Source: Podarcis gaigeae
Taxonomy: Eukaryota
Length of the DNA stretch: 64,000 nt
Direction: 5' to 3' (one strand)
NCBI GenBank assembly: GCA_964106915.2
Contig: OZ066930.1
The notes under the pieces were generated by a model, which worked only from the letters and a program-made list of their open reading frames with translations, was not told where the DNA came from and did no database searches. A program made the position numbers and the translations under genes. Within the stretch, counting starts at the first letter, position 1; the number at the start of each line of letters is the position of its first letter. Shown piece by piece: positions 39,401 to 42,400 of the stretch.

Positions 39401-42400
39401 GGGGGTGCTCTTCTTCCTCTCGAGGCTGGGCAGGGGGCTGGCAGGCACTTTCACCGTGCTGCTGGCCTTGTTGCGCCCAGCCTCCCGCTCCTCTTCAGGC
39501 CGCTTGTTCTCTGCATTGGCTGCCTGTGTTTTCTTGGAGTACGAGGAGGATGTTGGGATGGTGGGTACTGTGGTGGGAAGAAGAGAGGGCCAGGGAGTGG
39601 GGGAAGAGAGAAGAAGAGTCAGCGTGGTGAGGTCTGGTTTGGGGAAGGGATACCCAGATACCCAGCAAGGGGAAGCTTGTGCTTTCTGGGCAGGACCCTG
39701 TTTCACAGGTGTGGAAGGAAGGAAGGAAGGAAGGAAGGAAGGAAGGAAGGAAGGAAGGAAGGAAGGACTCTCTCTTCTAAGGAGTCAATGAGCAACTGGA
39801 AAATTCCCTGCACCCCAATGCGGGGAGAGGGAGATTAAAAACCGTCAGGAGTTTTAAATAACCTGCATGGCTGCAGTCATGAGCTACATAAAGCAGGAAG
39901 GAAAATATAACCGTGTAATTAAAAACACACATACAAACATCCCAGTTTAGTTTTCCAGCTCTCCTTGCTGGATCTCGGTATCTTAGTCCCCACAGTGCCT
40001 GGTGAATGTTGTAAAATAGCCTGTACGGATGCACATTCCCCATCTCACATGAAAAAAATTATGCCTCCTTGTTGAATAGGCAGACCCAGTCAGATGAGCA
40101 GAGTAGTAACAGTAGTAGTAGAAGTAGCAGTAGTAATAATTGTAATACAGTGGAACGTCAGGTTTTGAACATCTCTGTTGACGAACGTTTCGAAACTCGA
40201 ACACCGAATACCCGGAAGTAGCTGCTTCCGTATTCGAACATGCCTCAGAAGATGAACTTCTGAGGCAGCTTCCGTATTGATTTTTCCATTTTGAGGCTTC
40301 TGTTTTGAGTTTCTGAACGTTTCGGAGTTCAAACGTTCTTCCGGAACCAATTACGTTTAAAAACCGAGGTTCCACTGTAATGGCAGGGAACTCTCACTGT
40401 GGTCCCCCCCTGAGCAAGAAATGTGGTGGTGGGATGACTCACCCTGGTCGCTTAAGCGGCGTTGCTTGGGGTTGGCTGATACACTGCGCTGTACCTTGTG
40501 CGACGGGGAGGGGGCGGTGCTGTTGGCAAGTTCGGGTTGGGTCCGTGGCTTCAGGGTAATGCTATCGTTGTCAAGCTGGAAGAGATCAGGCAGGAGCACG
40601 AGGGTGGGGGGAGAAGAGGCTCACTCAGTGGGTGAAGCTCTGACCCAGGCATTCCATTCATGTAATCATTTATTTATATCAGATATGAAGAACCTACACA
40701 CATTATTTATATGATCTCTACTCTTGGCTGAGGAAGAGGAGAAGAGGAGTTCTTAATAGTTGCTGCTGGAGGGTGAAAATAGAAATTGGGGTGTGCTTGT
40801 GAACATCCTGAGATACAAAGTGCAGCCCCTCCCCTAGCCAAACTGCAGCCTGCCCACCCCCTGCCCTGCTCAACAGCCAAACGAATGTGGCAGAACAGAT
40901 TATACCATTTCAGCTCAAGGAAGAGATTTTGGAGGCTCCTCTGTGCTAATATATATATATATATATATATATGCAGGTTTTGGTGTCCTCGGGTGTCTTC
41001 CCGTGTAAAAGTTGGGGTGTCTAGGCGACGTTTCGACGAGGTCTCACTCGTCATCTTCAGGCTGGTGCTTTCGGCTTCTTGTTACTGGAACAGAGCGGGA
41101 TCTCAATGTTTGAGTTCCTATAAATACTGTAGAGGGGGTGTATAGGAACTCAAACATTGAGATCCCGCTCTGTTCCAGTAACAAGAAGCCGAAAGCACCA
41201 GCCTGAAGATGACGAGTGAGACCTCGTCGAAACGTCGCCTAGACACCCCAACTTTTACACGGGAAGACACCCGAGGACACCAAAACCTGCATTCCTGTAC
41301 CCGTGAAAATCTACGAAAGCATATATATATATATATATATATATATTCTCCTAGGAGAAAGATCCTAATCCAGTCTGCTCACTTTGTGATACATTTTTTT
41401 AAAAAACAACCAAAGATCACTGCAAGCAAAAATTTAAGGGGCATTTGAAAAAAGGTATCACCCAACTGCAGACTGAAATAGTGGAGTTCATTCTGCATCA
41501 GGTGTGGGGAACCTCCGGCCCTCCAGAGGTTGCTGAGCTACAACTCTCGTCAGCCCTAGCCATTGGCCATGTTCGCTGGTGCTGAGGCAATTTGTAGTTC
41601 TGCAACCTCTGGAGGGCCAGAGGTTCCCCCAATCCGGTGTGTTCATGACAACATATCTAATTTCAGGTGGTCTCCAGTAGTATTAAGCTTGTTCTAAAAT
41701 TCTGTTCAACTGGTACTACAAACAGTGCTACAATATAGGTTTCAGATGCAAAGCCACTGGAAGTCTGCACACCTCAACAGATGAGGGTGCCATAAACTCC
41801 AACAACAAGTCTCTTTGTGGTGCAATGGGTCAGGGCTTTTGGCTGTTAACCAGAAGGTTGGTGGTTTGAGCCCATCCAGGGATGGCTGTGGGCAGGGGGT
41901 TGGTTTAGATCAGTGTTTCCCAACCTTTTTTGGGCAAAGGCACACTTGTTTCATGAAAAAAATCTCGAGGCACACCACCATTAGAAAATGTTTAAAAAAT
42001 TAACTCTGTGCCTATATTGACTATATATAAAGTAACTCTCTTTAATAGGCATCAAATAAACACAAAGAAAGTACCGGTATTTTATAATTACTTTATTATG
42101 AAATAGTAAGTACCGTATTTTTAGGACGCTCCGTCCCATAGGACGCACCTACTTTTTTTTGGGGGGGGGGGAATAAAGGAAAAAAAATTTTCCTTTATTT
42201 CCCCCCCCAAAACCAGGTCGGGGAACAGTGGGATGGCGGTGCTGCGCCTCCCCGCTGTCCCCCGAGCTTGTGGGGCTGGCCCATGTCTGCCTGGCGCGAG
42301 GGGCGCTCTGCTTCAGGGCGCCCCGCGCATCGGGCGGCAGGCTACAGTCCGCAGCATGGGGAACCCTCTGTTTCAGGGCGCCCCACGCGCCCCCACGGGT

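Follow-up and report, generated by a model that had tools for sequence, protein, structure and literature searches.

A palindromic insert attributed to a Penelope/Poseidon element in a MARK2 intron of Podarcis gaigeae

The MARK2 locus and the palindromic insert

The window analysed here, that is, the whole stretch of 64,000 nucleotides (nt) of Podarcis gaigeae DNA from contig OZ066930.1 (assembly GCA_964106915.2), contains the gene MARK2 on the minus strand and, within one of its introns, a palindromic insert that we attribute to a Penelope-like element (PLE). The kinase exons of MARK2 run from ~61.3 kb down to the KA1 exon at 27.1–27.4 kb, and the UBA exon (43693–43803) matched MARK2 best, at 55.9 bits, as compared with 45.7 for MARK4, 40.3 for MARK1, and 39.2 for MARK3. 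The insert lies in an intron of 3117 nt, 395 nt from the acceptor of the downstream exon and 2372 nt from the donor of the upstream exon, which we take to be exons 12 and 11, respectively; the exon starting at 40575 is preceded by ten coding exons, and the numbering assumes one first exon outside the window, as in the mammalian gene structure. The placement given in the first-pass annotation, about 400 nt upstream of exon 12 of MARK2, agrees with this gene and distance. The features of the insert and its two flanking exons are as follows.

40949–40972, no strand: left (AT)12 target tract, the last 2 nt of which also belong to the left arm, a possible 2-nt microhomology
40971–41122, minus: left arm, a pseudo-long terminal repeat (pLTR) copy, with its 3' end at +84 from the ATG and no tail
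41123–41140, minus: spacer of 18 nt, the loop of the RNA hairpin, probably a 5' extension of the left copy to -86
41119–41126, minus: TATA-like box TATTTATA of putative function, spanning the boundary of spacer and arm; the right copy starts at the last TATA
41141–41292, plus: right arm, a pLTR copy, 5'-truncated at -68
41293–41320, plus: tail of 28 nt (30 with the next AT), probably the Penelope extension between two reverse-transcription start sites
41321–41346, no strand: right (AT)13 target tract, as read from the sequence
41201–41238, plus: candidate minimal type I hammerhead motif, with core, stem II, GAAA, CG, and the cleavage site after C41236
41025–41062, minus: mirror hammerhead motif, in the sense of the MARK2 pre-mRNA and predicted to be buried in the long stem
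41209–41322, plus: first 38 codons of the open reading frame (ORF) of the element (ending in RENLRKH), the last 2 nt of which may be target-derived
41044–41139, minus: open frame with a TRS motif, stopping inside the hammerhead motif, probably the last ORF codons overlapping the pLTR
43693–43805, minus: MARK2 exon upstream of the insertion, with the UBA domain (match to MARK2; presumably exon 11)
40443–40575, minus: next MARK2 exon downstream, at a distance of 395 nt from the insert (presumably exon 12)

The perfect 152-bp arms, the 18-nt spacer, the 28-nt tail, and the (AT)n flanks described in the first-pass annotation were all exact on recomputation. The segments 40971–41122 and 41141–41292 are exact reverse complements of 152 nt each, and their pairing ends there, as both the next outer and the next inner pair are mismatched. 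This palindrome is the longest of the 86 inverted-repeat pairs of at least 25 nt in the window and, of the 25 longest listed, the sole perfect pair. The only two (TA)n tracts of at least 10 bp in the window lie one on each side of the insert, consistent with the earlier proposal of a microsatellite target. Because the target is an (AT)n microsatellite, a target-site duplication is unreadable. The outermost 2 nt (AT) of the left arm are common to the AT tract, leaving 150 bp per arm as unambiguous element.

The two arms show no difference in these 150 paired sites, which places their divergence below ~2% (95%). In addition, the insert contains 20 CpG dinucleotides in 348 nt, with an observed/expected ratio of 0.90, whereas the adjoining intron contains 9 in 1152 nt, with a ratio of 0.16, and the ratio for the whole window is 0.26. 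Of these two signs of youth, the intact CpGs are the stronger, because the arms of a palindrome can be homogenised. These results support a young insert, and both the recent insertion and the contrast in CpG content that had been noted earlier are borne out.

The perfect arms could instead reflect a fold-back chimera of the assembly or library, or homogenisation of the arms by polishing. The window does contain a gap of 129 N and several perfect short tandem duplications, and inverted PLE structures are described as troubling short-read assemblies (PMC8557442). However, the palindrome ends exactly at the boundaries of the element, the tail and the spacer are asymmetric and biologically placed, and unique intron sequence and MARK2 exons follow in order on both sides. 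Comparable structures were argued to be real in rotifers (PMC3846280), and polishing could mask one or two mismatches but not create the structure. We therefore consider an artefact very improbable.

Protein relatives and hammerhead motif

The right arm and the tail contain an ATG at 41209, and no stop interrupts its frame before the element ends. The 38 codons from this ATG are 58–69% identical to the N-termini of Penelope/Poseidon ORFs. A phmmer search of the peptide against 1.84 billion proteins returned three matches. The top match, P0002 (E 3.8e-16, 34% identity), owes its score to summation over the repeats of a tandem-repeat protein and was excluded from later analyses. P0003 is 68% identical to the 38-residue peptide and runs on into a Poseidon-type N-terminal domain. 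P0004 is 69% identical; its homology ends at the same codon and is followed by a His-Thr repeat, as expected from a CA microsatellite junction, and it appears from its sequence to be an independent relative.

P0003 is in turn 65% identical to the Crotalus adamanteus protein NXF25_010538 (P0005), which matches both arms of the insert with 57–58% identity, the value of 58% being over 38 residues. A search with P0005 retrieved 471 long proteins, including Poseidon-Ac (PAc; P0019), with the reverse transcriptase (RT) family PF00078 in 118 of 120 among the matches listed. The Podarcis muralis protein LOC144326219 (P0023), which was also retrieved, is 82% identical to P0005 over 137 residues, and P0023 and P0006 showed strong RVT_1 matches together with GIY-YIG matches of 19.8 and 17.4 bits, as compared with the Pfam cut-off of 22.6. 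When 123 proteins were compared with the window by tblastn, six of the nine matches fell on the two arms, and the other three were weak and lay elsewhere. No other copy of the element was found in the 64-kb window (best outside blastn match, E 0.034). The insert itself encodes no RT or endonuclease; it is protein-less, truncated, and non-autonomous, and cannot move on its own.

Each arm carries, as judged from its sequence, a minimal type I hammerhead of the kind present in Penelope pLTRs. The motif comprises CUGAAGA (41203–41209), an extra U, a 6-bp stem II (41211–16/41223–28), GAAA, a palindromic CG, and UC. The ATG lies where stem II begins, and the cut site would lie 25–26 nt past the start codon. 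The minimal hammerheads described in PMC4209133 have an extra base before stem II, a G10.1–C11.1 pair, and palindromic positions 15.2–16.2, and the motif of the insert has all of these features. A hammerhead descriptor matched three times in the window and not at all in 20 shuffled windows; two of the three are the mirror copies. The third (34150–34180, minus), with only a weak wobble stem and without the CG palindrome, was considered a chance match. Folding of five short pieces revealed no unusual stability (z -0.06 to -1.29).

The inverted arrangement of the pLTRs, with two copies head to head, the start of an RT-endonuclease ORF in the pLTR and tail, with 38 codons homologous to P0003 and P0005, and a tail on one end, of 28 unique nt or 30 with the shared AT and hence at the short edge of the 30–40 bp known for this optional feature, together indicate that the insert is almost certainly a Penelope/Poseidon-clade element consisting of two 5'-truncated pLTRs head to head. 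The Penelope-like origin proposed in the first-pass annotation thus gains a hammerhead core in each arm, an ATG with a homologous ORF start, and a chain to RT and GIY-YIG proteins. The link of the arm to PLE RT ORFs was found via P0003 and P0005.

Several results weigh against this identification. The 38-residue peptide had no significant blastp match to six full-length proteins, and a word search returned P0003 only, so that RT and GIY-YIG are reached by way of P0003 and P0005. The GIY-YIG scores are below the cut-off, and two of the four scanned proteins gave none. The nearest proteins are only 58–69% identical, and the parent element is not among them. Stem I of the hammerhead motif has only 2 bp, although all core bases are present, and none of the 31 Rfam matches listed for 40900–41400 reached the gathering score or belonged to a hammerhead family. 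Further searches were also uninformative: no significant Pfam match was obtained for P0003, P0004, or P0005 (one match at E 0.062), P0005 had no meaningful counterpart in the PDB, and in the ESM Atlas P0003 yielded no usable match and P0005 matched only clusters of DUF8422.

Flanking TA sequence and long inverted arms resemble the miniature inverted-repeat transposable elements (MITEs) of the Tc1/mariner type. A non-autonomous DNA transposon of this kind, with long terminal inverted repeats and a TA target, or a microRNA precursor, might therefore be considered, the more so as palindromic MITE-like repeats are frequent in the window and Rfam returned structure-driven matches to microRNA families. 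However, the ends of the insert are asymmetric, the right end reaching 28 nt past the repeat, the arms are not similar to the MITE-like families of the window, and they encode the Penelope ORF start and the hammerhead motif. The Rfam matches are driven by pairing alone, and 0 of 31 listed reach the gathering score. Both alternatives are extremely improbable. Overall, the insert is, with high probability, best explained as a recent stub of an endonuclease-positive (EN+) Penelope/Poseidon element in a (TA)n tract of what we take to be MARK2 intron 11.

The family was placed by way of P0023, whose predicted N-terminus does not include the pLTR-encoded part and with which the insertion is not directly comparable. 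A quick tree built from 37 of the 120 proteins, used only for separating the Podarcis clade from PAc, placed P0023 in an 11-row clade apart from PAc (SH-aLRT 100), and P0023 and PAc are 47% identical. Since the peptide has no significant PAc match and the clade of P0023 lies apart from PAc, the insert, on these sequence comparisons, comes from a Poseidon-clade family distinct from PAc. A separate observation is that the snake protein P0005 and the lacertid protein P0023 are far closer to each other, at 82% over 137 residues, than to Anolis PAc, at 40–47%; either horizontal transfer or a conserved lineage might account for this closeness.

Ends, central junction, and candidate route of formation

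Counted from the ATG, the right copy spans -68 to +112, or +114 if the next AT is included, and the left copy spans -86 to +84. In PAc, reverse transcription starts at 111–118, over codons R37 to I40 (PMC11167929), and the right end of the insert falls at the equivalent His codon, with a one-codon offset. There, the tail is taken to correspond to the interval separating two start sites, for which 30–40 nt are published; the 28–30 nt found here are at the short edge of this range and near the 31 bp of Adineta Pen2a (PMC3846280). At both ends, GC directly precedes (AT)n, and both outer junctions read as antisense complementary DNA (cDNA) leaving the target 3' end. By eye, the tail stem of PAc has a counterpart in the insert, with two compensatory changes.

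The spacer is more likely to belong to the left copy. In the presumed ORF-end frame it is open on the minus strand and has a stop on the plus strand, its composition favours the minus strand with a likelihood ratio of ~6, the plus reading being G-rich as compared with the A/C-rich sense strand, and the TATA-like box lies at the boundary; TATA boxes occur in pLTRs (PMC3846280). An inverted 5'-truncated pLTR joined to a pLTR with a short 3' tail, as stated in the first-pass annotation, was found, with the refinement that both copies are truncated and that the inverted (left) one is probably longer at its 5' end, because the spacer appears to belong to it.

The minus-strand frame across the spacer and the left arm contains a TRS motif. 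A basic C-terminal TRS motif occurs within the last 120 residues in 9 of the 11 proteins of the nearest clade (P0006, P0007, P0013, P0022, P0023, P0024, P0026, P0042, and P0049, of one Poseidon subclade), as compared with 9 of the 109 others, and TRS also arises in 381 of 5000 shuffles. This is only suggestive of a pLTR that also covers the ORF end, from the TRS frame across the spacer and the left arm.

PAc is reported to cleave AT-rich DNA and to extend both strands, with two start sites and a predicted dimer (PMC11167929). The inverted copy and the tail are described as typical of PLEs, with an undefined origin (PMC8557442), and junction palindromes were read as self-priming (PMC3846280). 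We tentatively favour, at even or slightly lower probability, a two-ended priming, in which an RT-endonuclease dimer would nick both strands of the (TA)n tract, with one cDNA per start site, and the cDNAs would be joined at the pLTR TATA. The RT/GIY-YIG protein making these nicks would have come from an active copy elsewhere. On the top strand, the nick would have primed a tail-less cDNA at the first internal start site (+82/84); on the bottom strand, it would have primed a cDNA at the second (+112/114), giving the tail. After stopping within ~200 nt, the two cDNAs would have met at the self-complementary TATA, where they could have been joined in one of two ways: the left cDNA folded back, or the two 3' ends annealed. 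The short loop and the junction palindromes of PMC3846280 would favour the fold-back.

A single cDNA might also account for the structure, if it was primed at the right tail end, folded back at the 5' truncation, copied itself, and was joined at its left end by the 2-nt microhomology. The short 18-nt loop and the perfect arms are as fold-back predicts, the TATA at the inner junction is self-complementary, the left end has the 2-nt AT overlap, and self-priming is how junction palindromes are read in PMC3846280. This route, however, needs the plus-strand spacer to be native, whereas on the plus strand the presumed ORF-end frame is interrupted by a stop, the spacer is rich in G where the sense strand is rich in A and C (the ratio of ~6 given above), and a TATA-box context is missing. 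It also gives no reason for a tail-less end at a recurrent site, given that tails of 30–40 bp are general in PLEs (PMC11167929, PMC8557442). We regard it as unlikely. We rejected the possibility that one copy had inserted secondarily into the TATA of another, since two 5' ends meet at the central junction, rather than a 3' end and a target.

The two-ended priming has points against it as well. It is based on one insertion, which cannot separate fold-back from annealing of 3' ends; the left end at +84 is tied to the first start site of PAc through the tail length alone (28–30 versus 30–40 nt); and the stem around the tail (41258–63/41300–05) has a predicted probability of only ~0.36. A literature search, with most subscription papers outside its scope, found no statement of two-ended priming for PLEs. 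If true, it would explain the head-to-head inverted pLTR and the one-end tail in one step. As both ends and the central junction are readable here, the in-vitro findings of 2024 become a genome-wide prediction on inverted pLTRs and tails.

Host gene, surroundings, and related systems

In the computed fold of the MARK2 pre-mRNA, the insert forms a stem of 152 uninterrupted base pairs (-318 kcal/mol), which the AU tracts lengthen. The hammerhead bases pair with the mirror arm with a mean probability of 0.9997, and stem II does not form, so that in this model the long stem sequesters the sole sense hammerhead of the pre-mRNA. Self-cleavage of the transcript is not expected, because minimal hammerheads cleave poorly and require a second sense copy (PMC4209133).

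The first-pass annotation had proposed a 152-bp double-stranded RNA stem as a possible substrate of ADAR or Dicer. The stem was reproduced, whereas the functional angle is weaker than implied, because the evidence for the stem is a computed fold and long hairpins are no rarity in the introns of MARK2. Four other hairpins in this gene reach -87 to -175 kcal/mol, with longest helices of 28–37 bp, and are tolerated. In favour of ADAR editing, Dicer cutting, or altered splicing of exon 12, the 152-bp helix is far longer than these, and on the pre-mRNA strand the single-stranded loop contains an acceptor-like CCCCCTCTACAG (41127–41138, minus). On the other hand, neither donor-like nor poly(A) motifs were found on the pre-mRNA strand of the insert, and the splice sites are 395 and 2372 nt away. 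Some editing is expected of any long intronic duplex and would not demonstrate function. An effect of the stem on the host is possible but unsupported and, in our estimate, improbable; the insert is most likely a neutral passenger with no effect on MARK2.

Several other features of the window were recorded. The 3' coding region of a CoREST-family gene (22631–23389, plus) lies tail to tail with MARK2, and the PDB matches of its SANT2 domain are to REST corepressor 1 and 3; by synteny, we take this gene to be RCOR2. The 129-N assembly gap (57242–57370) lies in a MARK2 intron. A GC- and CpG-rich repeat at 42125–43300 (observed/expected 0.74), in the same intron as the insert, consists of tandem units of 108–109 bp, some of them palindromic (77-bp arms, 87%), and is a second fairly young insertion of unassigned class. 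Two-copy tandem duplications, perfect or near-perfect, occur at 46094–46209 (56 bp), 62863–62958 (47 bp), and 62311–62382 (36 bp), and are either of recent origin or artefacts of overlap in the assembly. An older palindromic MITE-like family (motif CTACAACTCCCATCA) has at least 10 copies in the window, several of which form imperfect hairpins of 55–64 bp within MARK2 introns:

2903–3035, 32284–32410, 37366–37510, 38651–38794, and 41492–41629: MITE-like copies with motif CTACAACTCCCATCA
45053–45095, 48576–48723, 50561–50603, 53835–53919, and 62258–62438: further MITE-like copies with motif CTACAACTCCCATCA

Among known systems, the insert resembles PAc of Anolis carolinensis (PMC11167929, P0019) in the ATG at the start of hammerhead stem II, the cut site 25–26 nt after the start codon, the GAAACGUC core, the LR-x-H peptide at the tail end, with an end inside the 111–118 window at a one-codon offset, and the AT-rich target. 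It differs from PAc in its family, as the 38-residue peptide has no significant blastp match to P0019, and in lacking RT and endonuclease. With Crotalus adamanteus P0005 it shares the same N-terminal peptide (58% over 38 residues), whereas Podarcis muralis P0023 carries an RT and a GIY-YIG match (below the cut-off), neither of which is present in the insert. A literature search on Podarcis Penelope elements and squamate repeats found nothing on the family of the insert.

The layout is also that of PLEs in general and of Pen2a_Av of Adineta vaga, as described in PMC3846280 and PMC8557442: a head-to-head inverted pLTR, an optional tail on one copy (31 bp), a pLTR over the first ORF codons, a TATA box, and junction palindromes. 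Unlike the Adineta vaga insertions, the insert has no internal ORF, and its truncation points are only 18 nt apart. Paired motifs on opposite strands, 100–700 bp apart, are described for truncated PLEs of Schistosoma (PMC4209133); the opposite-strand cores of the insert are ~140 nt apart, with a stem I of 2 bp as compared with 4–5 bp. Like the non-LTR retrozymes (bioRxiv 10.64898/2026.07.22.740005), the insert is short, non-coding, and pLTR-related and has a type I hammerhead. As described there, however, retrozymes form head-to-tail tandem arrays in which a dimeric ribozyme is possible, whereas the insert is head to head with one sense motif per transcript. A retrozyme identity was rejected, as the copies are inverted and Tandem Repeats Finder shows no head-to-tail array at the insert.

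In L1 twin priming, both target strands prime and the products join internally by microhomology, which results in an inversion. Twin priming copies non-overlapping parts of one RNA, whereas the two copies in the insert overlap fully, so that two RNAs, strand displacement, or fold-back would be needed.

The head-to-head layout of truncated Penelope elements has been in print since at least 2013–2014, and the locus itself is ordinary, one more truncated Penelope insertion. ORF-less palindromes of this kind are easily mistaken for MITEs, microRNA precursors, or assembly errors. As compared with the Anolis system, the insert points to a recently active Poseidon-clade family in its host that is distinct from PAc.

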